This document shows positions 5,727 through 35,100 of a DNA stretch of 40,595 nucleotides, in pieces. Position 1 is the stretch's first letter; each line of letters begins with the position of its first letter. The notes under the pieces are model-generated. The model saw only the letters and a list, made by a program, of their open reading frames with translations. It had not been told where the DNA came from and did no database searches. Made by a program: the position numbers and the translations under genes. Source of the DNA: a virus. Lineage: Duplodnaviria; Heunggongvirae; Uroviricota; Caudoviricetes. Location: positions 1-40,595 of IMG/VR virus record IMGVR_UViG_2541047967_000005. The stretch is one strand, 5' to 3'.

Positions 5727-5741
5727 TTACCTTTCAGGTAA
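5727..5741. promoter_or_regulatory. Operator-like palindrome TTACC-N5-GGTAA
   Basis: ttacctttcaggtaa; upstream of the LexA box and the 5819 gene; same 16-mer as at 25185-25200. Confidence 0.5.
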
Positions 5742-5778
5742 TTTGCAAAACGTGCTGGATAGCAAACAAATTATTTGC

Positions 5779-5798
5779 TACTGTATAAATATACAGTT
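5779..5798 (+). promoter_or_regulatory. LexA (SOS) box overlapping the promoter of the downstream small gene
   Basis: tactgtataaatatacagtt: CTGT-N8-ACAG with AT-rich spacer, close to the E. coli consensus TACTGTATATATATACAGTA; contains a -10-like tataaa. Confidence 0.75.
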
Positions 5799-5818
5799 AT
5801 TGCATGGAGAAGATTAAG

Positions 5819-6076
5819 ATGCAGCAGTATCACTATCCACTGGAAGAGGGATTTACCGAAAGGATTCACACGCCGGGAGGCGTCAGGTCACTGGTGGAGG
5901 GATCGCACTTGATGAAATTACTCCGGGATCTCGATAAGGATGGATTTAATGTCGATGGCCCACTTGCCGAACTGACTGCACTGATTAACTACGTCACCAG
6001 CTCACAGATGTCTATGCAGGATCTGCAAACACATCTCGACTATTGTGCCGAACAATTACGAAAACAAACCAGATAA
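5819..6076 (+). CDS. Small SOS-regulated anti-repressor-like protein (C-domain paralogue of the Bro proteins)
   Basis: RBS ggagaag 8 nt upstream of ATG 5819 (the track ORF starts at 5804, inside the RBS); C-terminal motif AELTALINYV ... DLQTHLDY parallels AELTTMFCYIV ... DIQTHAEY of both Bro-N proteins; LexA box directly upstream. Confidence 0.6.
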   Translation: MQQYHYPLEEGFTERIHTPGGVRSLVEGSHLMKLLRDLDKDGFNVDGPLAELTALINYVTSSQMSMQDLQTHLDYCAEQLRKQTR

Positions 6077-6212
6077 GATTTGAAATTACCAATAGGAGTG
6101 CTTATATTTACCTTTGCAGTAAATTTACATCGCACTCCTCTTGTGCCATAGTAATCGGGCACTGGCAAAATCCAGTGCCGGGATTGGCGTCCCGGGTTAC
6201 TAAGTGGCGCAT

Positions 6213-6235
6213 ACCACGCCAGACGTGGTTTTTTT
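6213..6235 (+). terminator. Rho-independent terminator inside the Bro1 leader
   Basis: ccacg ccaga cgtgg followed by seven T; a matching hairpin plus T-run sits at the mirrored position upstream of Bro2. Confidence 0.6.
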
Positions 6236-6391
6236 ATGCGTTAAGCACAGCTATATCCGAATTATGGTGGGCTGGGCAGGGGTCCGAAAGGACGCCGGTA
6301 CCACTTAGGCCGGTACGCCAACCTTGTCCAGTTCACCACCAGTAATTGGCGTTGCGGTGGTGATTAAAATCACTAAGTGGAGATAACCACC

Positions 6392-7102
6392 ATGGCTAAT
6401 GCTCAAACTGCCATCTTCAAATTTGAATCTGTTAACCCTATCCGTTCCATCATTATCGATGGCCAACCATGGTTTGTAGCCCAAGACGTTTGTAGTGCGC
6501 TGCGTATCCAAAACGTCACCCAAGCACTTGAAAAACTGGATGATGATGAAAGGTCTATGTTCAACATAGGGCATGAACATCGTGCAATTTTTGACAGCCG
6601 AGTAAAAGAGATCAACATTATCTCCGAGTCAGGCCTCTACACACTGATCCTCCGCTGCCGCGACGCAGTGACACCAGGCACTATCCCCTACCGCTTTCGT
6701 AAATGGGTTACAGGTGAGGTTCTTCCTCAGATCCGCCGCACCGGAAGTTACATTAAAAACTCGCTCCCGCAGGAAGAACGCATAAAGATGGTTGCCGACC
6801 AGGTAGCCAACGCCACGGCGTCAGCAGTAATGCAGGCGATGAAGATAGAGAACAAAACCTACAGCGCCCCACTGAAGCCCGGCTACCGCAGCCTGATTCA
6901 TTCGCCGTCTGGTGTTCTCGGCCTGACGGAGAACTCACTGCTGATGAATCTGCTGAACCAGTTACAGGAAGACGGGCACGATGTATCGGGCGCGGCGGCG
7001 GAGCTGACCACCATGTTCTGCTACATCGTCGGTGTGAGCAAATGCCTGCGTGATATCCAGACCCACGCGGAGTACATCAACGACAAAGCAGGATTCTTCT
7101 GA
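6392..7102 (+). CDS. Bro-N domain anti-repressor-like protein (paralogue 1)
   Basis: RBS ggag 9 nt upstream of ATG 6392; Bro-N pattern (IFKFESVNPIRSIIIDGQPWFVAQDVCSAL); C-terminal 158 aa identical to the 8373-9059 product. Confidence 0.75.
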   Translation: MANAQTAIFKFESVNPIRSIIIDGQPWFVAQDVCSALRIQNVTQALEKLDDDERSMFNIGHEHRAIFDSRVKEINIISESGLYTLILRCRDAVTPGTIPYRFRKWVTGEVLPQIRRTGSYIKNSLPQEERIKMVADQVANATASAVMQAMKIENKTYSAPLKPGYRSLIHSPSGVLGLTENSLLMNLLNQLQEDGHDVSGAAAELTTMFCYIVGVSKCLRDIQTHAEYINDKAGFF

Positions 7103-7174
7103 CGGGCGGCGGCACAGGGATGTGCCTTTAAATAATTCTGTACAGATTGCAGACCGGGGGTGAATAGCGTACTA

Positions 7175-7189
7175 TTACCTTAAAGGTAA
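7175..7189. promoter_or_regulatory. Operator-like palindrome TTACC-N5-GGTAA upstream of the cargo cassette
   Basis: ttaccttaaaggtaa, about 45 nt upstream of the 7232 start. Confidence 0.5.
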
Positions 7190-7231
7190 ACCTGTTTTTA
7201 TTTTATACCTGTAACTTACCGGAGATTAAAG

Positions 7232-7558
7232 ATGACAAAACTTGGATTCGTGATGAGAGGTCCGGTAAGAAGCGGAACTCATGCAAAGCGTAGCAAGAGT
7301 CGTATTTTTACTGGTAAGGTTGTAGCACGTAAATCAGCTATTGGCTCGTTCAATAGTGAAAATGCGGCATTGCGCCATATTTTTATCAGCACAAAGCCAA
7401 GAGCATCCGCTGATGTGCATACAATGTCTATTCCTATCACAAAGAATATCAAGCGGATAAAAAAGCTCTCATCTGCAGAATCAAAAGAGATATCTTTCCG
7501 CCAGCTTAACTCATTAGAAACGCATATGAAGGAAGAGGAATTCGATGTTTTTGAGTGA
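7232..7558 (+). CDS. Basic 108-aa protein of unknown function; first gene of the low-GC two-gene cassette (candidate antitoxin/immunity partner)
   Basis: RBS ggag 7 nt upstream; Lys/Arg-rich N-terminus, acidic C-terminus (EEEFDVFE); AT-rich with AGA codons; 3' end overlaps the next gene by 14 nt. Confidence 0.5.
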   Translation: MTKLGFVMRGPVRSGTHAKRSKSRIFTGKVVARKSAIGSFNSENAALRHIFISTKPRASADVHTMSIPITKNIKRIKKLSSAESKEISFRQLNSLETHMKEEEFDVFE

Positions 7559-8057
7559 GTATAGCGGGAAGGTTATACCTACTGGTGAGTTTAAAACTGA
7601 TGACTTTCTGATTTCGCTAAAAGATGCTTTTAAACAACACTGGCGTCATGGTCATCATCCTGATCTGGGAAAAGATACTCTTTTTGAAAGACCAGACGAA
7701 GTATTAGGCTTCCATCTCAGAAAGGTTCATGTCAATATTGGTGAATATGCATCATATTCATACTCATGTACTGAACAGTGTTGGGATGAGTGGTCATATG
7801 GATTGATTGATGAACAAGGAAATTACAGGCCAAAACCAACCAGTAACGCATATCTCATATATGCAGTCAATGAAATAAGAGATGCAGCCTTACTAGCTTA
7901 TTGGGACCCGCCCGCACACACCAAAGCTAACGCAAAAGTTTGGATGGATTCCGTATTGAATTTCACAAAATTATTTCATGAACGAACGAATACAGCTCCA
8001 CTTAGTAGAAATGTTTATCCGTGGGATTATTCGTACAAATCCAAAAAGCCTGCATAG
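7545..8057 (+). CDS. 170-aa protein of unknown function; second gene of the cassette (candidate toxin/effector, possibly YafO-like)
   Basis: Strong RBS ggaagagga upstream of ATG 7545; translationally coupled to the upstream ORF; low GC; motifs (LFERPDEVLGFHL ... AYLIYAV ... ALLAYWDPPAH) loosely recall YafO-family toxins from memory, not verified. Confidence 0.5.
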   Translation: MFLSEYSGKVIPTGEFKTDDFLISLKDAFKQHWRHGHHPDLGKDTLFERPDEVLGFHLRKVHVNIGEYASYSYSCTEQCWDEWSYGLIDEQGNYRPKPTSNAYLIYAVNEIRDAALLAYWDPPAHTKANAKVWMDSVLNFTKLFHERTNTAPLSRNVYPWDYSYKSKKPA

Positions 8058-8138
8058 TAGTTTTTTATGGACGAAACAAAAGTCAGTGCTACACTCATTG
8101 ACGCCACATTGAGGTGGCTTATAGATGGAAATTTCACA

Positions 8139-8300
8139 ATGAAAAAAGCATTTGCTGCACTGTTCGTTTTGTTGTCTCTGGTAGCTTCAACTCAGGCCTT
8201 TGCCGGTCGTTGTCAGCACGACAGCGACACTGCTGCTGACGGCTCCCGCTGCGGTGGGCGTTCTGCGGATTCCCGCCCTGGCGGCGGTGGCATTCGTTAA
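8139..8300 (+). CDS. Small secreted Cys/Gly/Arg-rich peptide (~53 aa precursor), unknown function
   Basis: Internal ATG followed by a signal peptide (MKKAFAALFVLLSLVASTQAFA) and ~31-aa mature part; weak RBS, so the call is tentative; the track ORF starts at 8067. Confidence 0.35.
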   Translation: MKKAFAALFVLLSLVASTQAFAGRCQHDSDTAADGSRCGGRSADSRPGGGGIR

Positions 8301-8306
8301 AAACAA

Positions 8307-8322
8307 GGCCGCGAAAGCGGCC
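8307..8322. terminator. Bidirectional hairpin terminator between the convergent cassette and Bro2
   Basis: ggccgc gaaa gcggcc (GNRA loop); A-run upstream on plus equals T-run on minus; terminates Bro2 on the minus strand. Confidence 0.55.
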
Positions 8323-8323
8323 T

Positions 8324-8335
8324 GTGACATGTCAC
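8324..8335. repeat. 12-bp palindrome GTGACATGTCAC (copy 1 of 3)
   Basis: Exact palindrome immediately next to the bidirectional terminator, in the unique segment between the inverted-repeat arms. Confidence 0.7.
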
Positions 8336-8372
8336 GATAGTTTCGTTTTGCACATCCCTGTGCCGCCGCCCG

Positions 8373-9059
8373 TCAGAAGAACCCTGCCTTGTCGTTGATG
8401 TACTCCGCGTGCGTCTGGATATCACGCAGGCATTTGCTCACACCAACGATGTAGCAGAACATGGTGGTCAGCTCCGCCGCCGCGCCCGATACATCGTGCC
8501 CGTCTTCCTGTAACTGGTTCAGCAGATTCATCAGCAGTGAGTTCTCCGTCAGGCCGAGAACACCCGACGGAGAATGAATCAGGCTGCGGTAGCCGGGCTT
8601 CAGTGGGGCACTGTAGGTTTTGTTCTCTATCTTCATCGCCTGCATTACTGCTGACGCCGTGGCGTTGGCTACCTGGTCGGCAACCATCTTTATGCGTTCT
8701 TCCTGCGGGAGCGAGTTTTTAATGTAACTTCCGGTGCGGCGGATCTGAGGAAGAACCTCACCCGTAACCCATTTACGAAAGCGGTAGGGGATAGTGCCTG
8801 GTGTCACCGCATCGCGGCAGCGGAGGATCAGTGTGTAGAGGCCTGACTCGTTGATAATATTGGTTTCGCCTTGACGGCCTAAGTTAAATTTAGCCCTTTC
8901 ATCATCATCAAGAGATTTTATTGACATAGTGGGGTTTGTCAGTTGAAGAGCTTTAATAACGTCTTTGGCAACAAACCAAGGATTTCCATCAATAACAATG
9001 GCTCGAATGGTTGCCTCTGATTCAAAATGAAAAACAGATGGGGTTACGTTAGCAGTCAT
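8373..9059 (-). CDS. Bro-N domain anti-repressor-like protein (paralogue 2)
   Basis: Internal ATG (MTANVTPSVFHFESE...) with RBS aggtga; Bro-N pattern (IDGNPWFVAKDVIKAL); C-terminal 158 aa identical to Bro1. Confidence 0.75.
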   Translation of the reverse strand: MTANVTPSVFHFESEATIRAIVIDGNPWFVAKDVIKALQLTNPTMSIKSLDDDERAKFNLGRQGETNIINESGLYTLILRCRDAVTPGTIPYRFRKWVTGEVLPQIRRTGSYIKNSLPQEERIKMVADQVANATASAVMQAMKIENKTYSAPLKPGYRSLIHSPSGVLGLTENSLLMNLLNQLQEDGHDVSGAAAELTTMFCYIVGVSKCLRDIQTHAEYINDKAGFF

Positions 9060-9325
9060 AGTGATCACCTTTGTAGTTAGGTTAATCACCACTACCGACG
9101 CCAATCGGTTGGTGGTGAACTGTGCAGGGTTGGCGTAACCGGCTACAAAGGACCCGGCGCACCTTTCGGTGCCCCCACACAGCCCACCATAGAATAGGTG
9201 CGCTTTACACATAAAAAAACCGCTTATGCGGCATATGTGCCTCTGTAGTAACCCAGGACGCCAATCCCGGCACTGGATTTTGCCAGTGCCTGATTACTAT
9301 GGCACAAGAGGAGTGCGATGTAAAT

Positions 9326-9340
9326 TTACCGAAAAGGTAA
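9326..9340. promoter_or_regulatory. Operator-like palindrome TTACC-N5-GGTAA upstream of the Bro2 leader
   Basis: ttaccgaaaaggtaa; the mirrored site in the left arm (6108-6122, ttacctttgcagtaa) has one mismatch. Confidence 0.5.
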
Positions 9341-9487
9341 TGATAAACGCTAAGAAATATTAAAATCAACCATATTTGGTTAATGCGTATAAAAGAGCCA
9401 GCAGCGAGAAATTGTGCCGCGACGTAAAATAACGAGCATCTGCTGGCTTACAACCAGCGATGTTTCAAATTTGTCACTATTATCAAC

Positions 9488-9841
9488 GTGCCATTCCACG
9501 GCGCAGAACTTTATGTTGTCAATCACAACGGAGAACCGTACACCCCAATGAAACCTATCGTTGAAGGCATGGGTATGGATTGGGCTTCACAGTTTACGAA
9601 AATGAAGCAGCGGTTTAAAACCTGCATTGTGAAAATCACAATGCAGCTTCCTGGGGATGAACAGCGCCGTGAGATTATTTGTTTGGCACTTCGCAAACTT
9701 GCTGGCTGGTTGCAAACCATCAGCCCTAACAAAGTCCGCCCTGAAATCCGCGAAAGTATTGAAACATCAACCGTGTCGATATCGACACGGTTGATTATGA
9801 CGGTAACTTATTGCCGTGTGTCCTATTTCTCCCACCACTAA
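9488..9841 (+). pseudogene. Remnant of a P22 Ant-type anti-repressor (N-terminal domain only)
   Basis: GTG start with no RBS; FHGAELYVVNHNGEPYTPMKPIVEGMGMDW ... LRKLAGWLQTISPNKVRPEIRE resembles the Ant N-terminal domain, then degenerates and stops after ~117 codons; no C-terminal domain in any frame. Confidence 0.45.
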
Positions 9842-10138
9842 CTAATTATATTTGTCTTTAAAAATCTCATGGAATGATTGAGAGTAAGACTTTCCATACT
9901 TCAAATAACATTCTTCATCCAACTTTCTTAATGAACTTCGAACCTGTTCGTGGCATACAGCAAAAAAAACAAGTCCGCCGCCTATTAATACCCCTATTGA
10001 TATTGGGTTCGCAACATCCCATAAAAAATCGGCTAACAGAGCAAATACCCCACCGCCGCCAATAAATGCCCCTATAGCTCGGTTCGTTTTAGCTTGCTCA
10101 TAGCGTCTCTCTAACTCACTAAACTCTTTAATATCCAT
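9842..10138 (-). CDS. Small two-TM membrane protein; candidate superinfection-exclusion protein at a sieA-like position
   Basis: RBS agaggtg upstream of ATG; two Gly-rich hydrophobic segments; AT-rich; directly downstream of the ejection-protein genes and upstream of the anti-repressor region. Confidence 0.4.
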   Translation of the reverse strand: MDIKEFSELERRYEQAKTNRAIGAFIGGGGVFALLADFLWDVANPISIGVLIGGGLVFFAVCHEQVRSSLRKLDEECYLKYGKSYSQSFHEIFKDKYN

Positions 10139-10156
10139 ATAAGCACCTCTATAAAA

Positions 10157-13180: not shown

Positions 13181-13191
13181 TATTTAGATCC

Positions 13192-19389: not shown

Positions 19390-19997
19390 CAGGACAACCT
19401 CGCAATGGTAAACTCGTCAACCGGTGGCTGTGGTTCCTGTGATTCATTCTGGCTATGCGAGCCAGCACTAAGAATCACGCGATTGTACATATTGAGGGCA
19501 AACGTACCGAGGTCTGCATTCCCAGTCAGCGCCATGTTAATAGCTGCCGCAAGACGCCAGGCCAACGCCTCCATAAAAATGGCATCAAACATGTTCACAT
19601 CTGTAACGCGAGAGACATACTTGAGCCATGCCTGAGGCTGGTCTGTGTAGATCAACTTTCCTGTTCCGTTGGTGTCTGCACCAACTTCGTACTGAACGCG
19701 CATTGCTGCTGTTGGATTGCGTACACCAGGAAGCATAATTTCAGTAATGCGCAGACAATCTGACGGGTACTGGTACGCATATTCCCAGTCAGGCGGTGGA
19801 TTGCTCGTATCTGCAAGCGCCACGCGTTTGGTAGCAAAGTTCCAGTCAAAATCAGAAAGCACAGTATCACGGCAGGCCTCAAAGTGCAGCGAACATTCCC
19901 CCGCTTCCTTGCTGGCTTCCGTCAGGCTGTTAATGCTGCGGCTGTTGCCAATATTGGACAGCGCACGATTACAGATCTCTACTACAGAGGCCATCAC
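19389..19997 (-). CDS. Tail tubular protein A-like / adaptor (202 aa)
   Basis: Size and synteny with T7 gp11; overlaps its neighbours. Confidence 0.5.
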   Translation of the reverse strand: MMASVVEICNRALSNIGNSRSINSLTEASKEAGECSLHFEACRDTVLSDFDWNFATKRVALADTSNPPPDWEYAYQYPSDCLRITEIMLPGVRNPTAAMRVQYEVGADTNGTGKLIYTDQPQAWLKYVSRVTDVNMFDAIFMEALAWRLAAAINMALTGNADLGTFALNMYNRVILSAGSHSQNESQEPQPPVDEFTIARLS

Positions 19998-22901: not shown

Positions 22902-23198
22902 TCACTCCTGTTCACTGGCCTCTTTGGCCATCTTCAAATACTGTTCAGGGCAATGCGCCATAACGCGCTGAAACAGTTCCAGCGCCAGATTGCGTTGCCC
23001 CTCATTAAATGCCATTGCCATAGCGTCCATCGGTGAGATAGCGGAAAACACACGGCCTTTCTCCAGCACCGACCAGACAACGCGACGCCCCTGTTCACTG
23101 CTCATGACAAAGCAAATGTCATCAATTTCACGCTGTGCCATGTCACGTTGCTTACGGGCGTTTTCTTCTTTCAGTTGATCGTCTTCGTAATCTGTCAT
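22902..23198 (-). CDS. Small acidic head-assembly-associated protein (98 aa)
   Basis: ORF coupled to the portal stop and scaffold start. Confidence 0.4.
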   Translation of the reverse strand: MTDYEDDQLKEENARKQRDMAQREIDDICFVMSSEQGRRVVWSVLEKGRVFSAISPMDAMAMAFNEGQRNLALELFQRVMAHCPEQYLKMAKEASEQE

Positions 23199-24874: not shown

Positions 24875-24888
24875 TTCAATGACTCCGG

Positions 24889-25095
24889 TTACTGACCAAG
24901 CAGCGTTTTACCGCTGGTATTAGCAGTTGATGTGTCGCCCTGAGAACCGGTAAGCAGCGTAGAACTACGACCAGCAGCAGCGCGACGGCGACGAGTTTCT
25001 TCGTCGCGGGCATCAACAACGGCGGCATCCTGCTCCTGTGGTGCTGCCTGAACTTCTGGTGTTGCAGGCACTGATGGTGAGCTACCCATGCACAT
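24889..25095 (-). CDS. Small hydrophilic protein (68 aa) upstream of portal
   Basis: RBS ggag 8 nt upstream; its initiation region (cggagtcattgatatg) is nearly the same as the portal one (cggagtcattgaaatg). Confidence 0.4.
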   Translation of the reverse strand: MCMGSSPSVPATPEVQAAPQEQDAAVVDARDEETRRRRAAAGRSSTLLTGSQGDTSTANTSGKTLLGQ

Positions 25096-25163: not shown

Positions 25164-25200
25164 TTGACATTTAACGCGCGAATTATTACCTTTCAGGTAA
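25164..25200 (+). promoter_or_regulatory. Candidate promoter (-35 TTGACA) with operator-like palindrome TTACC-N5-GGTAA
   Basis: ttgaca at 25164-25169; ttacctttcaggtaa at 25186-25200; lies in a 400-bp non-coding region upstream of the tRNA. Confidence 0.4.
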
Positions 25201-25522: not shown

Positions 25523-25599
25523 GTGGCATTAGCTCAGTTGGACAGAGCAACCGCCTTCTAAGCGGTTGGTCGCAGGTTCGAATCCTGCATGCCACGCCA
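25523..25599 (+). tRNA. tRNA-Arg (anticodon UCU), argU-like
   Basis: 77 nt folded by hand: 7-bp acceptor stem gtggcat/atgccac, D stem gctc/gagc, anticodon stem accgc/gcggt with loop cttctaa (TCT), T arm gcagg-ttcgaat-cctgc, 3' GCCA. Confidence 0.85.
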
Positions 25600-25762: not shown

Positions 25763-25786
25763 GCCCGGTTCGCCGGGCATTTTTTT
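25763..25786 (+). terminator. Strong rho-independent terminator immediately upstream of the moron RBS
   Basis: gcccgg ttcg ccgggc followed by seven T; ends 12 nt before ATG 25798. Confidence 0.6.
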
Positions 25787-25797
25787 AAGGTGAGATT

Positions 25798-26220: not shown

Positions 26221-26224
26221 CGCC

Positions 26225-26236
26225 GTGACATGTCAC
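26225..26236. repeat. 12-bp palindrome GTGACATGTCAC (copy 2 of 3)
   Basis: Exact palindrome 4 nt before the moron terminator hairpin, just beyond the terL stop. Confidence 0.7.
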
Positions 26237-26240
26237 AATC

Positions 26241-26265
26241 AGCCCGCCGATTCGCGGGCTTTTTT
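26241..26265 (+). terminator. Rho-independent terminator of the moron gene
   Basis: agcccgc cgattc gcgggct followed by ttttt; overlaps the terL stop codon. Confidence 0.6.
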
Positions 26266-27739: not shown

Positions 27740-28335
27740 TGATTGCCATCCTGACGTTCTTTCAGTCTCTTCCTGGCTGCCGCTATGCGATCAGCAATTG
27801 TCACATTCACATTAACATCCAGGCGTTCTTTGAATGCGTTGACGTCGACGTGCTTACCAATCAGTTCGAGGTTCTTCACCTTGTCAGGCCATTTAATTTT
27901 TTTGAGGATGCCAACCAGCTCTTTCTCGTCTCCACGGCCTTCGAACATGTCGGCCAGTTCGAAACCTGTCAGGTACTGCCGCCAGACCTTAGGCCATTCC
28001 GAGACCGGCTTGATGCTCATATCGTCGTTGAGAATGTCAATCACGTCCATCTGGTCGATCTCCACCAGGCGCATGAGAACGTAATCAGCACTGACGCGCA
28101 TTCGTTTGTTGCGCTCCTCCATCAACTCGGCAATCCGTTTTTGAATGCGTTCATCGCGCATCATGACACTGGCTTTAACTGCCGCTGTATTTGGGGAGAA
28201 TCCTGCGTTAATCGCTGCCTGAGTCTGGTTTTCAGGCGTTTTGATGTATGACTGGCAATAAGCCTCCTGCATTGCTGTTAGTGGCTTAAATTGCGTTGAT
28301 TTGCGTTTATAGGTTTTAGGTTCAGCAGGCATCAT
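27736..28335 (-). CDS. Terminase small subunit
   Basis: Internal ATG (MMPAEPKTYKRK...) chosen because a terminator lies upstream inside the longer track ORF; basic DNA-binding N-terminus, helical C-terminus; coupled to terL. Confidence 0.6.
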   Translation of the reverse strand: MMPAEPKTYKRKSTQFKPLTAMQEAYCQSYIKTPENQTQAAINAGFSPNTAAVKASVMMRDERIQKRIAELMEERNKRMRVSADYVLMRLVEIDQMDVIDILNDDMSIKPVSEWPKVWRQYLTGFELADMFEGRGDEKELVGILKKIKWPDKVKNLELIGKHVDVNAFKERLDVNVNVTIADRIAAARKRLKERQDGNQ

Positions 28336-28376
28336 AACCACCGTGGTAATAGTTACCGTTGTGGTAATAGTACCAT

Positions 28377-28404
28377 GCAAAATAAAGCCGCCATAGTTGG
28401 CGGC
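28377..28404 (-). terminator. Rho-independent terminator between the Cys-rich gene and terS
   Basis: Minus strand: gccgcc aactat ggcggc followed by tttatttt. Confidence 0.6.
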
Positions 28405-28445
28405 AGTATTCAAAACCCATCAAATTCATCATGCATAACCCACTC

Positions 28446-28457
28446 GTGACATGTCAC
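28446..28457. repeat. 12-bp palindrome GTGACATGTCAC (copy 3 of 3)
   Basis: Exact palindrome overlapping the stop codon of the 28454-28795 gene, about 40 nt upstream of the terminator preceding terS. Confidence 0.7.
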
Positions 28458-28795
28458 AATATTAATTTCGTTTCATGCCAGCCTTTAGTCACCCAGCATT
28501 GCGAGTCACCATTACACGGGCATGAATTCACAGGAACTCTCTCGCCGCACTTACCGCAACGTTTTCTGCTGATCGATTTTATACGCCCGTGCACGCGCGC
28601 ATCATCCTGGCGGATCAGTAACGCTATATACTCACCAAATTCGTAAGGCGCACGCCCGGGGCGACGTGTGGCACAGTTACGCTCCAGCATTTCAATTTCC
28701 TGAGCATCAAGCACAATTTCCAGCTTACGCACACCGGATTCAGCTTGTCTGGCTCTCTGAGCGGCTTTGCGCTCTGCTGCTGATTTAGCCATCAA
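28454..28795 (-). CDS. Cys-rich 113-aa protein of unknown function (possible late-gene regulator)
   Basis: C-terminal cluster CGKCGERVPVNSCPCNGDSQC; immediately upstream of the late operon. Confidence 0.35.
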   Translation of the reverse strand: MMAKSAAERKAAQRARQAESGVRKLEIVLDAQEIEMLERNCATRRPGRAPYEFGEYIALLIRQDDARVHGRIKSISRKRCGKCGERVPVNSCPCNGDSQCWVTKGWHETKLIL

Positions 28796-29066
28796 TATTC
28801 ACCTTTATCGCGAACACCTTTACCGGTTTATCGCCGAAGTGGGGATGTGTGATTGTCTTTATTTCATATCCGTCATACGGAACATCAATTCTGCGGCTGG
28901 AATCGTCGCGCTTCGGATATCCCTTTGTGATAATCAGGCGGTCATACTTACGGTTAACGAGGCGCTTATTCCAATAGTCATTACACAGGCGATACTCTTC
29001 CGTTTTCTCTCCGCGAATCATGGCATCGAAGTATTCACCTTTGACGGCAAGTTGAAGGTTAGCCAC
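28785..29066 (-). CDS. ASCH-domain protein
   Basis: GEKTEEYR fits the ASCH GxKxxExR motif; GTG start with strong RBS aggagg. Confidence 0.5.
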   Translation of the reverse strand: MANLQLAVKGEYFDAMIRGEKTEEYRLCNDYWNKRLVNRKYDRLIITKGYPKRDDSSRRIDVPYDGYEIKTITHPHFGDKPVKVFAIKVNIDG

Positions 29067-29946
29067 GGTTAACCTCCTGCGGCGGTTCTGGTAGCGGCAT
29101 CCAGTACAAGGCGTTCCCTAACCACGATAAAGTGCCGTCGCTCAACTCCACGTATTCCCCTTGTACCTGTCCTGCCATATACTCGCCGTGCTTTGAATAA
29201 ATTAAAATCCAATCATCTTGAGCGGGCATTTGCTCACTACAGCTTATCCAACCATCCGGAGTTACCGGATAGTTGCGCATTGCGACCTTTAATGCCTCAT
29301 AGAAGCAACCTTTCAGATTGTTGAACTGACGCCCATTTAGCGGGACGTGTTCAGTCAGCATGTTGTGTAATTTCCATGCCGCGTCGTTTACTTCGTTGGA
29401 TGACAGGGGAGGCAACTTGTAAGTTTGGCTTACAGGTTCGGCACCATGAAGCATGGCGTCGCTCCGCTCTATGCCATCCAGCGCGATTCGCAGTGCCTGA
29501 ATTGTGGTAATGCTATCGTTTGGGGCTATTCCATATCGCTCGAATACAGCGATATGACCGCGCATAATCTCAGGCGTAAGCTCTTTGTAAGCATAAGCAA
29601 GCGACCCTGATGCATCATCCGGCACAACCGACGCAGGCGCGGCAGCATAAACAGGAATAACGTCCGCTTGCTCTTTATTGCTTTCATCCGTTAAAGCCCA
29701 GAATAATTTCCCGGCCGGATGTTTGAAAATATAAGCAACTGGTTCTGCTTCCAGCGATGCCAGCACGATACGCGCCAGCTCACGCACAACTTCCGGCGGC
29801 GCGTAACGGTCATTCAGGTCATCCCACAGGCGTAGCATGTTATCGCTACCAGGGTGAACATCCTCGTTAGTTCCGGCCAGCGCACTAATAACCTCATCGG
29901 CTGCTTCAATAATTTTCTGTGCCTGTTCTCTGGTAATAGTGGTCAT
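29059..29946 (-). CDS. DUF551-domain phage protein
   Basis: C-terminal WMPLPEPP hallmark of DUF551. Confidence 0.55.
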   Translation of the reverse strand: MTTITREQAQKIIEAADEVISALAGTNEDVHPGSDNMLRLWDDLNDRYAPPEVVRELARIVLASLEAEPVAYIFKHPAGKLFWALTDESNKEQADVIPVYAAAPASVVPDDASGSLAYAYKELTPEIMRGHIAVFERYGIAPNDSITTIQALRIALDGIERSDAMLHGAEPVSQTYKLPPLSSNEVNDAAWKLHNMLTEHVPLNGRQFNNLKGCFYEALKVAMRNYPVTPDGWISCSEQMPAQDDWILIYSKHGEYMAGQVQGEYVELSDGTLSWLGNALYWMPLPEPPQEVNRG

Positions 29947-29956
29947 TTGTTATGCC

Positions 29957-30154
29957 TCAATACACGAAATCTGTTTTAAATTCATGGTTACATTCTGGAC
30001 AGCATGTTTCGTAACCTTTTATTTCTTCACATGCCTGTTTAGCTCCAGAAAACTCCCAGAAATCAGCATCACAAAGCAGATCGAAATTGTGACCGCATTT
30101 TGGGCATTCGGTATCAAGTGACAGATTCCAGTAAGCAGTGGTGTTTTTATCCAT
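29957..30154 (-). CDS. Small zinc-ribbon protein (65 aa)
   Basis: Internal ATG with strong RBS aaggagag; CPKCGH ... CCPECNH; coupled to the upstream gene stop. Confidence 0.5.
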   Translation of the reverse strand: MDKNTTAYWNLSLDTECPKCGHNFDLLCDADFWEFSGAKQACEEIKGYETCCPECNHEFKTDFVY

Positions 30155-30155
30155 A

Positions 30156-30785
30156 TCACTCTCCTTTGATGCGAATGCCAGCGGCGCGCTCGGCTTTACT
30201 TTGTTCCCAAAACCACTTGTGAAGCTCCATAAGCTTTTCGTCAATCGGTGCATATTTGCGATTAAAGTAGGCCTGAGCATCTTTCTCAGATTCGTCCGGC
30301 AATTCGCCTGGGCCAAACAGTGTGTTATAAATCCATGCCAGTCCGCTCTTAGCGTCGCCAGTTGCCTGCCATTCGATAATCGCAGCCTGCATGACCAGAA
30401 TGTTTTTCCCGATTAACAGGTCCAGTTCTTTGTACCGGTTGCGGATGTATGCATTCTCGCTTTGTAATTTTGCGTTGCGCTTCTCTGCGGCTTCCAGCTC
30501 AACACGCAGCTTCCCTACCGTTAGCGCAATATCCTCGTTCTCCTGGTCACGGCGTTTGATGTATTGCTGGTTTCTTTCCAGTTCATCCAGTAATGCCAAA
30601 GCAACCTTTGGATTAAAGGCAGCAATAAATTCAGCGTTGTTTTTCAGAACGTGTTGCGCAATGGCCTGACCACTTAGTCGGACCTTATAACCACGTGCGC
30701 CACGGTGTGGTTTATATGAGTCCCAGTCTCCCCACGTTGCTTTTTCTGCCTTTTCACGCAGTGCCTGATAGTTAATCTCGCTCAC
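30156..30785 (-). CDS. Ead/Ea22-like coiled-coil protein
   Basis: N-terminus MSEINYQALREKAEKATWGDW and central coiled coil typical of lambdoid Ead/Ea22-like proteins. Confidence 0.45.
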   Translation of the reverse strand: MSEINYQALREKAEKATWGDWDSYKPHRGARGYKVRLSGQAIAQHVLKNNAEFIAAFNPKVALALLDELERNQQYIKRRDQENEDIALTVGKLRVELEAAEKRNAKLQSENAYIRNRYKELDLLIGKNILVMQAAIIEWQATGDAKSGLAWIYNTLFGPGELPDESEKDAQAYFNRKYAPIDEKLMELHKWFWEQSKAERAAGIRIKGE

Positions 30786-31006
30786 TCTTCATCCTCCAAG
30801 TCGGCAACGGCGTCCATCACATCAGAACCGCGAATAACCTCAAAAGCACGGCAGGCCATTTGAAATACCAGTTGCTCTTGCGGGTGAGGAGACTCCCAAT
30901 ATTTGAAGCCTGGGCGATGCGTGTACCCCATCATTGAATAAAAATCACCAGCAAGCTTAATCGCGGCATCGACAAGCTCTCTGTTAGTCATTCTTTTTCC
31001 GCTCAC
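30782..31006 (-). CDS. Hypothetical early-region protein (74 aa)
   Basis: ORF coupled to neighbours in the nin-like region. Confidence 0.4.
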   Translation of the reverse strand: MSGKRMTNRELVDAAIKLAGDFYSMMGYTHRPGFKYWESPHPQEQLVFQMACRAFEVIRGSDVMDAVADLEDEE

Positions 31007-31509
31007 TGGTTGCCTCCTTTGCGAAGCTGGGCGGCTAACTCATCACATATGTGCGTCAAACAACAAAGTTTGATTGCTGGATGTTCGCGCATCATCTCTA
31101 CCCCCTGCGCCCGCACTTCAGACAGGAAAGCATCGGTAGCTGGAGTTTCGCTGTGGTGTAGGGCATCGTTGATAATCATTGCAGCAACACCAGCCTGCCC
31201 TGCATCCGTGACCGACACATGCTCAAGAGTTACGGCCATTGCGTGTTTCAGTCCGGCATTCTCCACTGCCAGCGCCGAAAACTTCTCGTGTGCCAACTTA
31301 ACAGCTGCATCAGCCTGCTTAATTGACTCAATCGCTTTCTGTTGGTCTTCGGCCAGCGCATTAGCACGCACCAGTTGCACTTCCAGTTGCGTTGCCAAAT
31401 CGCTGATCAGCTTTGCCACACTACGCATATCAACGGCACCACATTCTGCTTTCAGTTCCGAAGCCATCTCATGCCCGGCGGCAACTAACCCTTTGATATT
31501 ACTTTCCAT
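31003..31509 (-). CDS. Hypothetical early-region protein (168 aa)
   Basis: ORF with ATG start verified in frame; Ala-rich helical protein. Confidence 0.45.
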   Translation of the reverse strand: MESNIKGLVAAGHEMASELKAECGAVDMRSVAKLISDLATQLEVQLVRANALAEDQQKAIESIKQADAAVKLAHEKFSALAVENAGLKHAMAVTLEHVSVTDAGQAGVAAMIINDALHHSETPATDAFLSEVRAQGVEMMREHPAIKLCCLTHICDELAAQLRKGGNQ

Positions 31510-31570
31510 CTTTACCCTCGCTTATCCACATAACTTATTGATTACATTGATAACTAAAAAGATCGTCGAT

Positions 31571-31915
31571 TCAGAACTTTTCGATGTTCCAGCCACCACC
31601 TGCTTTCTTTGGTTTAACCGTTACCCCGATGATTCGGAACGGATACTGATCTGCGGCGACTTTGGTTTTCACCCTGGCGTCGTCGGTCCAGAAACCTTTC
31701 ACTTCGTGCAGTTCCATCTCGCCGGTGGCGAGCATCACAGCAAAATCGGGCGTATAGAACGTGTTGTCAGCTAACCGCAGCTTGATACCCTCAAATCGAT
31801 ACCAGACGATTTCTCCTGCACGTTTACGCAGCTCAAGGTGCTGGCAATACGCAGATTCTGTTTTGTTCATCTGACCTGTTTTGAGTCGACCAAGAGCCTG
31901 TATCTGTTTTCTCAT
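31571..31915 (-). CDS. DUF1064-family protein (putative PD-(D/E)XK-type nuclease)
   Basis: Pattern QHLELRKRAGEI ... YTPDF ... EVKG ... YP matches DUF1064 phage proteins; RBS ggagg upstream. Confidence 0.5.
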   Translation of the reverse strand: MRKQIQALGRLKTGQMNKTESAYCQHLELRKRAGEIVWYRFEGIKLRLADNTFYTPDFAVMLATGEMELHEVKGFWTDDARVKTKVAADQYPFRIIGVTVKPKKAGGGWNIEKF

Positions 31916-31918
31916 GAT

Positions 31919-31933
31919 TTACCTCCGAGGTAA
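31919..31933. promoter_or_regulatory. TTACC-N5-GGTAA palindrome overlapping the DUF1064 RBS
   Basis: ttacctccgaggtaa; on the minus strand it contains the GGAGG Shine-Dalgarno of the 31915 start. Confidence 0.4.
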
Positions 31934-31980
31934 TTAAAAACCACATAAGACACGAAATCAATAGATTTTAGAATATTTTA

Positions 31981-31995
31981 TTACCTAACAGGTAA
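31981..31995. promoter_or_regulatory. Operator-like palindrome TTACC-N5-GGTAA
   Basis: ttacctaacaggtaa in the P-like to DUF1064 intergenic region. Confidence 0.5.
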
Positions 31996-32032
31996 TTGTC
32001 GAGGCGTAAAAAAATGCGCTATCGCGCTGGTA

Positions 32033-32818
32033 TTACTTGATAAATCCTGCCGCCTTTCCCCGCCTGTATTCCTCCATCAGCCACTGCGCCGGTGTTATTC
32101 CCCCAAGGGTGGCGGCGTTAGGCATGCACCCGAAACTTCGCCCTGGTGGATGGTAAACGTCTCTCCCTGTGTCCGGAGGCGTACTCATGGGCTCTGGCTT
32201 TGCCTGTATGCTGATCACCGGATCGGGTATCTGCTGTCCTGAAGCCACCTTTTTCGCCCAATCATCGAGCAGCCTGCGTGCGTGTTTCTCAACCTCAATC
32301 TCGCTAAGCTGGCGCTGATACATTGCACGGCGGGTATCACATACGACCCAGTACATAACCGGATGTCGCCACGGGAATCTTTCGGGACCACCAGGATATA
32401 AACTTTTTTCCTTGCTGTACCGGTGAAACTCCGCCATCACATCGTCAATGGTGACGCCAAGAACCATCTTGCTGTCTTTGCACCACTTGATAAATTGCCC
32501 TGGAGACGGCCAGAACGGAGATTCACTGGCGCGGGCGTGGCGCATACCAGCAGAAACCTGTTCACGGGTTCGGATCCCCCCTTCGGCAAACGCAGCAATC
32601 CACTGCTGTTTTGCAGCAACTTCCTGCTCTGGCGTCTTCAGGTTGGTTACCACTGCCGCCGGAAACAGTTGTTTCAGCTGTTTAAAAAGGGCATCAACAA
32701 GCCTCTCTGCTGACATGTTCACCACATTGTCATTGTTGACGTACTGATGCTCATAACCTGACATGCGAGAAAGGGCTTCTCCGTCACGGTTTTGTATCGC
32801 GGTAAAAACGTTGTTCAC
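32033..32818 (-). CDS. Lambda P-like replication protein (helicase loader)
   Basis: Strong similarity by eye to lambda P (QQWIAAFAEGGIRTREQVSAGMRHARASESPFWPSPGQFIKWCKD vs lambda RRQWVLAFRENGITTMEQVNAGMRVARRQNRPFLPSPGQFVAWCRE); GTG start with RBS gggagga, overlapping the O-like stop. Confidence 0.8.
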   Translation of the reverse strand: MNNVFTAIQNRDGEALSRMSGYEHQYVNNDNVVNMSAERLVDALFKQLKQLFPAAVVTNLKTPEQEVAAKQQWIAAFAEGGIRTREQVSAGMRHARASESPFWPSPGQFIKWCKDSKMVLGVTIDDVMAEFHRYSKEKSLYPGGPERFPWRHPVMYWVVCDTRRAMYQRQLSEIEVEKHARRLLDDWAKKVASGQQIPDPVISIQAKPEPMSTPPDTGRDVYHPPGRSFGCMPNAATLGGITPAQWLMEEYRRGKAAGFIK

Positions 32819-33630
32819 AAGAAATCCTCCCATGCTTCAGGGCTGTTCCAGTGCGGAACGTTGTTATCAGGTAATGTTGATTGCTTCTGTCTGCTAATCT
32901 GCAGCCGCCTTGCCAGCTTCTGCTCCCACTGTGCCTGATGGTATGCCTTACCCTCAGCCATCCAGTAAATTCTGAACTCTGCAAGTTCCTGTGCCGTTGG
33001 CAGACTGTCCAGGTAGATCCCCTGCAATGAGCTTTTCCGAAGAAAGTCATCTGATGGCTGCCATTGTTCATGCATGACAAATTTGCCTAATTGCCCTGGC
33101 CCACCAGGAGGAACAAAGTTATTCATCACGGCGTTGTTTGCTCCGGGGTCATGAGGCACAGAATCCCCGCTTTTTGTCCTGCTCTCCCTCTCTTGGTTAA
33201 ATGACTGGTTATATGACTGGTTCTGGATCCCGTTTTTGGGATCATTCAACATCCCGTTTTTGGGATCATTCAACATCCCGTTTTTGGGTATATTCCCGTT
33301 TTCGGGTATATTCCCGTTTTCGGGTTCATTGCCCCCCTCCCGGTTGCCTTTAATGTTCCCGTTTTTGGTTATATTAAGAGAGAAAACCCGCACTCTTTTT
33401 GTCGCTCCCTTTCTCTCTCCGGTATCTGAAATAATCCCCATTTTCATGAGCGATATAAGCCCGGCCTGCACGGTTTTTTTATTCAGGCAAGTGTCTTTAA
33501 CGAGGCGTTCTATGCTGGGGTAGCAGAGGTTATATTCATCGGCTCTGTCAGCCATCGAGAGCAGTATGAGCTTTAATGATGAGCTACCTGGATCTGTCTC
33601 CCAAGCCCAATCTGTTGCATGTCTGCTCAT
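32815..33630 (-). CDS. Replication initiator (lambda O-like arrangement) with internal iterons
   Basis: N-terminal winged-helix-like domain; repeated peptide GNIPENGNIPKNGMLNDPKNGMLNDPKNG encoded by the iteron array; RBS ggag; directly upstream of and coupled to the P-like gene. Confidence 0.65.
   Translation of the reverse strand: MSRHATDWAWETDPGSSSLKLILLSMADRADEYNLCYPSIERLVKDTCLNKKTVQAGLISLMKMGIISDTGERKGATKRVRVFSLNITKNGNIKGNREGGNEPENGNIPENGNIPKNGMLNDPKNGMLNDPKNGIQNQSYNQSFNQERESRTKSGDSVPHDPGANNAVMNNFVPPGGPGQLGKFVMHEQWQPSDDFLRKSSLQGIYLDSLPTAQELAEFRIYWMAEGKAYHQAQWEQKLARRLQISRQKQSTLPDNNVPHWNSPEAWEDFL
33227..33375. repeat. Iteron array (candidate origin of replication) inside the initiator gene
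   Basis: Six or more direct repeats with core CCCGTTTT(T/C)GG at 18-24-bp spacing; positions verified against the overlapping plus-strand track ORF. Confidence 0.7.
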
Positions 33631-33645
33631 GATTAATCTCCGCTA

Positions 33646-33846
33646 TCAGCTTGAATGTTGTGGGGAGGAATTAATCATGATCTGCTTAATCTCTGCCCTG
33701 ATGCGACGGTTTGACTCCATGGTGCACTCAACACAGTGTCCGTTGTAAACCCAGCGTTCACTGTCATGTCCGTGCTTACATGGTTTTCCGGTGTAGTAGC
33801 GTTTAAGTCCGCGCTTTGCGGCATCAATACGTGTAATGATTTCCAT
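33646..33846 (-). CDS. Small zinc-finger protein (66 aa)
   Basis: Internal ATG (MEIITR...); CKHGH ... CVEC motif; between the Cro-like and initiator genes. Confidence 0.45.
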   Translation of the reverse strand: MEIITRIDAAKRGLKRYYTGKPCKHGHDSERWVYNGHCVECTMESNRRIRAEIKQIMINSSPQHSS

Positions 33847-33926
33847 GGTAAGCCCTGTTATTAGTATTGGGATTGCGGTTATTTTGTGCTGACACAAAAA
33901 AAAGATCAACCAGATTTGGTTTTTTA

Positions 33927-33941
33927 TTACCTTTGAGGTAC
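33927..33941. promoter_or_regulatory. Operator-like palindrome, one-mismatch variant (TTACC-N5-GGTAC)
   Basis: ttacctttgaggtac between the Cro-like terminator and the replication genes. Confidence 0.35.
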
Positions 33942-33951
33942 GAATAGATAT

Positions 33952-33974
33952 GAAAAGACCGCCGGATGGCGGTC
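33952..33974 (-). terminator. Rho-independent terminator after the Cro-like gene
   Basis: Minus strand: gaccgcc atcc ggcggtc followed by tttt. Confidence 0.5.
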
Positions 33975-33996
33975 TACAGAGGGTTGTTGCCAGATA

Positions 33997-34227
33997 TCAT
34001 GAGTAGAAGAAGTATGCCAGTTCCGCTTTTGAGCGCAGCCATTGTCTTGTTTTACAGGCTTTAAAAAGCCCATTCATCAATACCTTACCTGGCATTTTGC
34101 GCTTACCTGTTAAGTGAGTCTGGATATAGTGACTCGTCGTTCCGGCTTCCTGTGCGAAGGCTTCACGCTCATCCGGAGTAAGTGCAAGCCAGTGCTTTTT
34201 GAAATCGAAATGTCCGTTATCGCTCAT
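33997..34227 (-). CDS. Cro-like / YdaS-like HTH DNA-binding protein
   Basis: 76 aa with HTH-like segment (FAQEAGTTSHYIQTHL); divergent from the repressor-like gene and first gene of the leftward replication operon. Confidence 0.45.
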   Translation of the reverse strand: MSDNGHFDFKKHWLALTPDEREAFAQEAGTTSHYIQTHLTGKRKMPGKVLMNGLFKACKTRQWLRSKAELAYFFYS

Positions 34228-34311
34228 AGCTATTGCCTGATATTTATTTCAGATAATAAATATTCACCCATAAGGTAACAAAAATCAAGGATAGTTACCT
34301 ATGGGGTGCAT

Positions 34312-34326
34312 TTACCTGTTGGGTAA
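34312..34326. promoter_or_regulatory. Operator-like palindrome TTACC-N5-GGTAA in the divergent immunity promoter region
   Basis: ttacctgttgggtaa between the Cro-like and repressor-like genes; a GGTAAC ... GTTACC pair lies just upstream (34274-34300). Confidence 0.5.
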
Positions 34327-34381
34327 TATTGCTTTAAATTGAATCATCTACTGATTCATATATGAGGCGATTTTCCAGAAA

Positions 34382-34966
34382 ATGAAAAGTATCCAGGACG
34401 TCCGCAGGCAAAATCTCAACGACTTGATCGACCGTGAATTCAATGGTGTTCAGACGCGGATGGCAGAAAAACTTGGAACTCAGGCAAATCTGGTAAACCG
34501 CTGGGCTCTTGGCAAGAAGGTTATCGGCGACCAGGTTGCGCGAAAAATTGAAGCTGCCGCCAATAAACCCCGTAACTGGCTTGATATCGATCGCTCGCTT
34601 TCTCAGGAAGGTTTTCAGCCTGTCGGCCCAAGCGACATTGGTCAGCTGGCAGCTCACAACCTGGAACGCTGGATGAGTGAAAGCCGCGACCTTTCAACTC
34701 AGGGAAAACTTCACCGCGCATCCGGCGTCGCCCAGGTGACAATAAGCCGCCTGTTAAACAATGAGGTCAGCGTTTCCATTTCCACCCTGGAGAATGTTGC
34801 ATCTGCATTCGGGCGTCACGGATATGAACTACTGATTCATCCGCATGACCCTGCGACCATCAACTATGATCGCTCGCGCTACGCATTGTTACCCGAAACC
34901 GAGAAAGCAAAGATCGAAAGTTACATTGAATTTGTCATCAACCAGAACGAAAAAAACAAACAATAA
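34382..34966 (+). CDS. Prophage repressor-like protein with two HTH segments and no LexA-type peptidase domain
   Basis: 194 aa; HTH-like segments GVQTRMAEKLGTQANLVNRWALGKK and GVAQVTISRLLNNEV; no S24 autopeptidase motifs seen; divergent from the Cro-like gene. Confidence 0.5.
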   Translation: MKSIQDVRRQNLNDLIDREFNGVQTRMAEKLGTQANLVNRWALGKKVIGDQVARKIEAAANKPRNWLDIDRSLSQEGFQPVGPSDIGQLAAHNLERWMSESRDLSTQGKLHRASGVAQVTISRLLNNEVSVSISTLENVASAFGRHGYELLIHPHDPATINYDRSRYALLPETEKAKIESYIEFVINQNEKNKQ

Positions 34967-34989
34967 AACCATATTTTTCAGTAAGTAAG

Positions 34990-35012
34990 TCGCCTTATGG
35001 CGGCTTTTTTAT
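34990..35012 (+). terminator. Short hairpin plus T-run after the repressor-like gene
   Basis: cgcc ttat ggcg followed by cttttttatt. Confidence 0.45.
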
Positions 35013-35023
35013 TGCCTATTCGA

Positions 35024-35038
35024 TTACCTAACGGGTAA
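35024..35038. promoter_or_regulatory. Operator-like palindrome TTACC-N5-GGTAA (upstream site of a pair)
   Basis: ttacctaacgggtaa, 20 nt upstream of a consensus -35. Confidence 0.5.
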
Positions 35039-35057
35039 TTTTTTTAACTCATATCTA

Positions 35058-35100
35058 TTGACATCAAACCATATACGCATAATTATTACCTCAACGGTAA
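35058..35100 (+). promoter_or_regulatory. Candidate early rightward promoter (-35 TTGACA) with operator-like palindrome over the -10/start region
   Basis: ttgaca at 35058-35063; AT-rich -10-like cataat/ataatt; ttacctcaacggtaa at 35086-35100; drives the small ORF and the RecE/RecT operon. Confidence 0.5.

Follow-up and report, generated by a model that had tools for sequence, protein, structure and literature searches.

Dispersed TTACC-N5-GGTAA palindromes as predicted operators of a Rep-type master repressor in a phiV10/epsilon15-like prophage

Repressor sites of epsilon15-like phages and the palindrome of the window

The RefSeq record of phage epsilon15 (NC_004775.2) holds seven 'protein_bind' features labelled repressor/lysogeny, with sequences of the form ATTACC-N5-GGTAAT. 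One feature each precedes terS, gp3 and the gene next after the replication genes, another separates gp19 from the tail-fibre gene, and the remaining three are in the PL region, between gp37 and the repressor gene. In phage SPC32H, the repressor Rep has been described as a tetramer on palindromic sites, in which the paired DNA-binding domains come from different dimers and which is broken by the antirepressor Ant (PMC9638917). The domain order of this protein has been given as DNA-binding, dimerisation and tetramerisation, Ant has been reported to bind the Rep C-terminal domains, and the structural mechanism of repression has been described as not extensively characterised (PMC9986798). With phage ZX5, over-expression of the repressor abolished free phage and reduced holin and endolysin transcripts by 99.97-99.99% (PMC9782041). 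The present analysis concerns a 40,595-bp stretch of viral DNA (IMG/VR record IMGVR_UViG_2541047967_000005, hereafter the window), which contains a phiV10/epsilon15-like (Uetakevirus) prophage, almost whole, and the palindrome TTACC-N5-GGTAA that recurs in it, all sites lying inside the prophage. The gene order is that of phiV10 and epsilon15 in reverse orientation, and the immunity region is 97-98% identical to that of phiV10 and its relatives.

The palindromes are very probably the operators of the prophage master repressor Rep, as predicted from its relationship to the SPC32H/epsilon15 type of repressor, and the operator element as such is already known, the same sequence being annotated as a repressor site in the related phage epsilon15. 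Orthologues of the epsilon15 features occur in the window at 28353, 25186, 5727, 35024/35086 and 31981, and the core ATTACC-N5-GGTAAT as well as the arrangement of operator pairs 62 bp apart are common to both. However, the window differs from epsilon15 in that a cargo cassette and two isrK-C4-bro modules carry additional sites, and in that no site precedes the lysis genes, which here directly follow the tail-fibre gene. The epsilon15 record does not annotate that phage's own switch sites at 33341, 33358 and 33388, nor a site at 35969, all of which are found by scanning. That the operators are known is taken from the epsilon15 record, from PDB entries and from descriptions at second hand; no operators are annotated in the phiV10 GenBank record, and none are defined in the ZX5 paper, which was the sole match of full-text searches for the motif and for Uetakevirus operators (PMC9782041). 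The finding re-discovers a known operator set, whose repressor and antirepressor already have crystal structures, and matters little as it stands; the resulting map, which places 16 sites and their promoters in the E. coli branch of the group, is a useful annotation where the phiV10 record and the ZX5 paper have none.

Exact copies of TTACC-N5-GGTAA number ten in the window (5727, 7175, 9326, 25186, 28353, 31919, 31981, 34312, 35024 and 35086), as compared to 0.00 expected from 100 dinucleotide-preserving shuffles, and allowing up to one mismatch raises the count to 15 copies against 0.58 expected by adding 5495, 6108, 28335, 33927 and 34264. An earlier note on this DNA, made from the sequence alone, had given nine exact positions, all of which are correct, but had missed the tenth at 28353, and among the one-mismatch copies it had recognised 6108 and 33927 but not 28335, 34264 and 5495. 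Its claim of an excess over chance is borne out by the shuffles. In an unbiased ranking, for which all palindromes of 5+5 bases with spacers of 0-10 were counted in the window, TTACC with a spacer of 5 comes first with its 10 copies, followed by two patterns that represent the same motif in another register, and the next unrelated palindromes have 3 copies each. The symmetrised consensus of the window sites is A-TTACC-T-n-(A/T)-n-A-GGTAA-T, in which ACC/GGT is invariant. The copy at 5495, which has one mismatch, was rejected as an operator; alone among the sites it falls within a real gene (tail fibre), it is absent from phiV10, and it is probably the one chance match expected. For the sites that the earlier note had listed, its statement that all are intergenic is essentially right, with the qualification that the spacer of 31919 carries the Shine-Dalgarno sequence of the next gene. 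The sites 28335 and 28353 lie within the longest terS open reading frame (ORF), yet, as in epsilon15, they are 3' of a terminator and just 5' of the likely ATG at 28335/28332.

Among the control sequences, 100 kb of E. coli K-12 and P22 each contain one exact copy and lambda contains none, which amounts to 2 sites in ~190 kb of unrelated DNA, as compared to 8-11 per 40-kb genome in this phage group. This density bears on the idea of a borrowed host element, recognised by a transcription factor or nucleoid protein of the bacterium. Such an origin would agree with the location of the sites at sigma-70-type promoters and with the action of host proteins in the region, namely LexA here and IHF in the epsilon15 annotation. 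However, a host site would not be expected to be so rare in the control DNA and to travel with rep through nine genera; to our knowledge the motif also matches no known E. coli regulator consensus, and a host factor as the reader of these sites is hardly credible.

The rep gene (34382..34966, plus strand) encodes a 194-amino-acid (aa) protein with N-terminal DNA-binding, middle dimerisation and C-terminal tetramerisation/Ant-binding domains. In a phmmer search against PDB it matches SPC32H Rep (5D50_A) end to end over residues 1-190 with an E value of 4e-42, and it is 100% identical to the ZX5 ORF21 repressor and to the phiV10 repressor, 42-43% identical to the epsilon15 repressor and 42-100% identical to annotated Uetakevirus repressors. 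The N-terminal domain is the best conserved part among 80 distinct homologues, and the recognition-helix residues N36, R40 and W41 are invariant in 80/80 of them. Pfam returns helix-turn-helix (HTH) families alone (HTH_3 and HTH_26, with weak YdaS and LacI HTH matches), and a Peptidase_S24 domain was not found in this search. Homology to 5D50_A, identity to the ZX5 repressor and the repressor features of epsilon15 support the earlier proposal that the sites form the operator set of a single regulator, for which the 34382-34966 protein is the likeliest candidate.

Operator positions relative to promoters

The operators stand in a defined register to promoter elements, which is clearest at the PL-like early-left promoter (TTGACA-17-AATTAT, -35 at 35058). 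Its distal operator (35024..35038, exact) lies 19 nt 5' of the -35 hexamer, and the proximal operator (35086..35100) abuts the -10 hexamer and covers the +1 of the operon starting at 35120, so that the last T of AATTAT is the first T of the operator, an overlap that had been pointed out before and is found as described. The distance between the two operators is 62 bp, and in an alignment this architecture is conserved in 9 relatives. The minus-strand operon of the DUF1064 gene follows the same plan, the order ahead of it being operator 31981, 19 nt, TTGATT, 22 nt, operator 31919. Here, the distal operator (31981..31995, exact) is the orthologue of the epsilon15 site 35906-35922 and also occupies the stretch between the hexamers of another candidate promoter, TCGACA-16-TAAAAT, and the proximal operator (31919..31933) carries the Shine-Dalgarno sequence GGAGG in its spacer, with the ATG 3 nt on. 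Thus, the operator pairs flanking the promoters at 35058 and ~31958 are both 62 bp apart from centre to centre. A further recurrent feature is a one-base overlap between the end of a -10-like hexamer and the first operator T, seen at 35086, 6108, 9326, 7175, 28353 (weakly), 25186 (plus strand) and 34264 (plus strand).

The late units and the replication genes are each preceded by copies of the operator. The exact operator before terS (28353..28367) follows a terminator at 28404-28387 and is the orthologue of the epsilon15 site 12-27; a second operator with one mismatch (28335..28349), 18 bp from the first, overlaps the likely terS ribosome-binding site and start codon, and its equivalents, also with one mismatch, are located at position 30 in epsilon15 and 105 in phiV10. 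Judged from epsilon15, terS probably begins with the ATG-ATG at 28335/28332. The phiV10 record takes the longest ORF for terS, by which the terminator and the two operators come to lie within the gene (28332-28413 of the window; 41-115 in locus L001). The operator at 25186..25200, the orthologue of the epsilon15 site 2931-2947, is situated between the head-gene operon (starting at 25095, minus strand) and the tRNA-Arg/p03-like unit on the plus strand, and a plus-strand promoter candidate directed toward tRNA-Arg, TAGACA-18-AATTAT, has its -10 ending on the first T of this operator. The tRNA-Arg gene (anticodon TCT; 25523-25599, plus strand) is divergent from the head operon, as in SPC32H, and may be transcribed from this promoter, which would fit the control of a tRNA promoter put forward earlier. 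The operator at 5727..5741, the orthologue of the epsilon15 site 19895-19911, is found between the divergent tail-fibre gene (starting at 5622, minus strand) and ant. Ahead of the gp40-like and replication genes, an operator with one mismatch (33927..33941) lies 17 nt 5' of the candidate promoter TTGATC-17-CAAAAT, and the same one-mismatch site is present in phiV10 (33112) and in Tyrion (35365).

Late operons usually need an activator, and at the late units (28335/28353, 25186 and 5727) the palindromes do not overlap a strong sigma-70 promoter, so these copies could be taken for activator sites of another regulator such as the gp49/p55-like protein (28454-28795, phrog_536), whose gene lies just 5' of terS. 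Against such a role, their sequence is indistinguishable from that of the early operators, the same sites are annotated as repressor sites in epsilon15, and a different conserved palindrome, GTGACATGTCAC, would be a better candidate for the target of a second regulator; an activator function of the late copies is therefore very improbable.

Between rep and the divergent gene for a cro-like 76-aa regulator (33997..34227, minus strand; phrog_35 'transcriptional repressor', E 4.9e-12; terminator at 33975-33956 after the gene), where the earlier note had already placed a site, three sites are found at 34264, 34295 and 34312. The exact operator O1 (34312..34326) overlaps the conserved sequence TTTACC-18-TAAATT, which is the best candidate for the rep promoter, although no clear sigma-70 promoter could be assigned to rep. 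O2 (34295..34309; TTACCTATGGGGTGC) has two mismatches, is 17 bp from O1 and is aligned with exact copies in relatives, namely epsilon15, SPC32H and BUCT711, and O3 (34264..34278, one mismatch) is positioned between the -35 and -10 hexamers of the leftward cro-like promoter, for which TTGTTA-17-TATTAT or TTGATT-18-AATATT are the candidates. The spacings of 31 and 17 bp between the three sites are conserved in six genomes. This three-site region overlapping both promoters suggests a lambda-like switch logic. Lambda CI and Cro act at the tripartite OR and OL, and CI possesses an S24 domain with RecA-stimulated autocleavage. Like lambda, the prophage has three operators between divergent repressor and cro-like genes and operators that overlap -10 and -35 elements, and by analogy with lambda the binding of Rep to multiple sites is likely to be cooperative. 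Unlike in lambda, Rep lacks the peptidase S24 domain and induction would proceed via a LexA-controlled antirepressor, the operators are also present at late and accessory promoters, and the pairs are 62 bp apart rather than adjacent.

The position of the cro-like gene raises the question of which protein reads the palindromes. Its phrog_35 assignment, its divergence from rep across the three sites and its presence together with the motif in every relative would all be compatible with the cro-like protein, and not Rep, as the reader. However, as sole binder it conflicts with the annotation of epsilon15, with the binding of palindromic sites by SPC32H Rep (PMC9638917) and with the shut-off of late transcripts by the ZX5 repressor (PMC9782041). 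Because of these three lines Rep is taken as the binder, and the reverse assignment is very unlikely. A shared use of the three switch sites by Rep and the cro-like protein, in the way that lambda Cro uses the operators of CI, is quite possible though less likely than not, and would leave the assignment of the operator set to Rep unchanged.

From the observed sites, their enrichment, geometry and conservation and from the Rep and Ant homologies, we infer binding by Rep, bridging by its tetramer and the direction of regulation at each site as follows. Two N-terminal HTH domains would read one site, the half-sites A-TTACC-T having their centres 10 bp apart and hence facing the same side of the helix. 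As a tetramer, on the model of the SPC32H literature, Rep would carry two pairs of DNA-binding domains, and at the paired operators, whose 62-bp distance is roughly six helical turns, the promoter between the two sites could be clamped by a single tetramer. At promoters with non-paired operators, the site abutting the -10 hexamer would block RNA polymerase. In the lysogen, Rep is thereby expected to silence nearly every transcription unit directly, because sites precede terS, the head operon and tRNA, the tail-fibre-lysis unit and ant, the replication genes, the bro modules and the cargo genes.

Several considerations weigh against this assignment and the mode of action proposed for it. Binding by Rep is predicted by homology for the window phage and phiV10 alike, and the repressor features of epsilon15 may themselves be predictions. 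The operator is constant across the family, and consequently there is no protein-DNA covariation that would tie it to one protein; moreover, the cro-like gene accompanies rep in every locus, so that comparative data cannot separate the two binders. With respect to mechanism, 62 bp is short for a free DNA loop and bridging by one tetramer is a conjecture, and the sites at 25186, 5727 and 33927 lie upstream of the best promoter candidates and not on them, which makes repression there less certain.

Conservation of the operator across relatives

Exact copies of the motif number 8 in phiV10, 11 in epsilon15, 9 in Tyrion, 9 in Klebsiella BUCT711 and 10 in SPC32H, and 7 copies each are present in 20 kb of a Serratia prophage (Rep 54% identical) and in 20 kb of a second E. 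coli type (Rep 59% identical), both of which hence still use TTACC-N5-GGTAA. Beyond these seven relatives, the motif is found near rep in six further genomes, with 4-7 sites each in the 6-kb rep neighbourhoods of Superficieibacter, Erwinia, Klebsiella, Citrobacter and Scandinavium. Taken by genus, motif and rep occur together in prophages of Escherichia, Salmonella, Klebsiella, Enterobacter, Citrobacter, Serratia, Superficieibacter, Erwinia and Scandinavium. The structural relatives BcepC6B and BPP-1 do not have rep, but their much higher G+C content would make a count of the motif in them an unfair control.

The promoter-flanking pairs are 61-63 bp apart in nearly all relatives, and the spacing holds wherever the pair is present among those examined. 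When the two promoter regions are aligned, the half-sites, CTATTGA (-35) and ATTAT (-10) alone are invariant and the DNA between them varies, and this invariant arrangement amid varying DNA points to selection acting on the layout, over and above common descent. The same observation speaks to the view that the palindromes are mainly recombination or module-boundary sequences, or else a methylation or restriction target. Sites do occur where modules meet, the variable bro/cargo region having them on either side, and homologues of DNA methyltransferases, as annotated in phiV10, are encoded by the prophage. However, neither function accounts for the fixed -35/-10 register or for a spacing of 61-63 bp that is kept while the intervening DNA diverges; in addition, restriction targets are normally avoided in phage genomes, and 15 bp is too short for homologous exchange. 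An origin of this kind is given next to no credence. With respect to number and dispersal, the palindromes resemble the stoperators bound by gp71 of mycobacteriophages L5/L1 (background in PMC1934351), where many repressor sites are spread across the genome in short intergenic gaps, but those are asymmetric 13-mers with an orientation bias relative to transcription that lie within transcribed regions and act on elongation, whereas the window sites are symmetric and in promoter register.

Covariation between repressor and operator was sought and no changed palindrome was found, even though the variants NLVSRW, NLINRW and NLISRW of the Rep recognition helix exist; operator and 61-63-bp spacing are unchanged for Reps of 42-100% identity in at least nine genera, including the helix variants NLVSRW and NLISRW. 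Around distant homologues that share the N-terminal domain only and have a different helix (Hydrogenovibrio, Thiomicrospira and Paraburkholderia), the motif is absent and no clear alternative palindrome adjoins the gene. Such invariance of the operator is unusual beside the many immunity types of lambdoid phages. As a tentative extension, with the balance leaning somewhat against it, we propose that this family has a frozen operator code (for Reps down to 42% identity, in at least nine genera) with mutual immunity at the level of Rep, that control of immunity and induction has moved to antirepressor layers, and that promoters are clamped by single tetramers. The code would be frozen likely because sites over a dozen promoters cannot all change together. 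If this is true, the antirepressor layers would consist of LexA-Ant and of the Rep-controlled isrK/C4-Bro modules, as in P1 versus P7, and an invariant operator with 62-bp pairs over divergent Reps would predict cross-immunity between phages of different genera.

Induction, antirepressor modules and neighbouring features

The earlier note had not touched on the induction arm, which is formed by a perfect LexA box (CTGTATAAATATACAG, 5781..5796) 8 nt before the ORF of ant (5804..6076, plus strand). The product is a homologue of the small antirepressor of SPC32H, matching 5D50_E ('Anti-repressor protein') with an E value of 1.7e-47 and 9 differences in 83 aligned residues (~89% identity), and ant adjoins the tail-fibre gene, just as ant of SPC32H does the tailspike gene. 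SPC32H ant is reportedly LexA-controlled and its Rep is said not to be cleaved, as attributed to Kim and Ryu in 2013, with which the lack of a peptidase S24 domain in Rep by Pfam is consistent. Upon induction, DNA damage would remove LexA from 5781-5796 and allow Ant to be made, and Ant, by binding the Rep C-terminal domains, would take the tetramer apart, so that all operators would be vacated at once; this sequence of events draws on the homology, the LexA box and the literature. Compared with the SPC32H Rep-Ant switch (PDB 5D50 and 5D4Z), the prophage has a full-length Rep homologue, the ~89% identical Ant, the LexA box and a motif of which SPC32H holds 10 exact copies, but it adds Bro-type antirepressors behind isrK/C4 RNAs that are not in the SPC32H annotation. 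On all features tested, i.e. Rep, operator sequence, positions and pairs, and LexA-controlled Ant, the prophage appears to be a member of the epsilon15/SPC32H Rep-Ant system. Between SPC32H and the prophage, Ant is ~89% identical and Rep 42%, although Ant reportedly binds the Rep C-terminal domains.

Particular to the window are the operators before two isrK/C4-bro modules and before a cassette with a YafO-like gene. The first module (6159..7102, plus strand) comprises isrK (6159-6235), the C4 antisense RNA (6260-6343) and bro1 (6392-7102, Bro-N), and is preceded by an operator with one mismatch (6108..6122) at the promoter TTGAAA-17-TATATT; in phiV10 the corresponding operator (20497) is exact. 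Transcription from a second candidate promoter, TTTACA-17-CATAGT, would begin precisely at the 5' end of isrK, immediately behind the Rep operator. In the second module (8373..9289, minus strand), isrK (9289-9213), C4 (9194-9108) and bro2 (9059-8373, Bro-N) are preceded by the exact operator 9326..9340 at the minus-strand promoter TTGATT-18-TATCAT. The Rfam scores are 66 and 79.5 bits for C4 and 67.7 and 72.2 bits for isrK, all above the gathering score. The cargo cassette (7232-8300), which encodes a 108-aa protein, a YafO-like 170-aa protein and a 77-aa membrane-associated protein, has an exact operator (7175..7189) that abuts the -10 hexamer of TTGCAG-17-TACTAT. The sequence would thus fit the control of both bro genes (via 6108 and 9326) and of the cargo cassette (via 7175), as the earlier note had supposed, and with the same operator as the remainder of the prophage, the bro units and the YafO-like cassette should be silent in the lysogen and on at induction.

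With isrK and C4 located 5' of both Bro-N genes and with operators 6108 and 9326 at their promoters, these units look like antirepressor modules of the P1 immI type. Repressor C1 of P1 acts at more than 10 operators dispersed over the genome, which are asymmetric 17-mers, and immI has the order c4 RNA-icd-ant. As in P1, one repressor would serve dispersed operators, and a repressor-controlled promoter would precede a C4 antisense RNA and an antirepressor gene; however, the window operators are palindromic, and the PDB and Pfam matches are to SPC32H Rep and HTH_3, with no homology to C1 seen.

The two modules are also parts of a quasi-palindrome (6097-9351), whose arms at 6608-7125 and 8350-8867, corresponding to the C-terminal halves of the bro genes, are 97% complementary over 518 nt, and whose outer arms at 6097-6202 and 9246-9351, with operator and isrK, are 92% complementary. 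The arms flank the 1.2-kb cassette for the 108-aa, YafO-like and 77-aa proteins, which could invert by recombination, and at least 80% of this arrangement is found in 2/5,426 complete E. coli genomes. Beside operator 9326, a 117-aa ORF (9488-9841, plus strand) contains the N-terminal domain of the P22 antirepressor (P22_AR_N, E 1e-31), is annotated as a truncated pseudogene in a near-identical prophage and would be a third, decayed antirepressor gene.

The second perfect palindrome, GTGACATGTCAC, is present at 8324-8335, 26225-26236 and 28446-28457 (3 exact copies against 0.12 expected) and, with one mismatch, at 23135, and phiV10, epsilon15, Tyrion, BUCT711 and SPC32H have it at orthologous positions. 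Its place is invariably where an operon ends, namely after terL, at the end of the virion operon and at the stop of the gp49/p55-like regulator gene, with an intrinsic terminator a few bases away, and it may serve as a processing signal or as the target of another regulator.

Concerning the extent of the prophage, the ZX5 attachment core ATTGAGTGGGAATGATT is found at 1163-1179 and marks a prophage end, and the integrase gene extends to the right end of the window, because of which the window is considered to represent almost one whole Uetakevirus prophage. The 1.1 kb to the left of the attachment core (window 1-1179) encode a glycine-zipper/TraT-like protein and a DUF5384 protein and not guaA, which is the integration site of ZX5 and of the prophage in locus L023.

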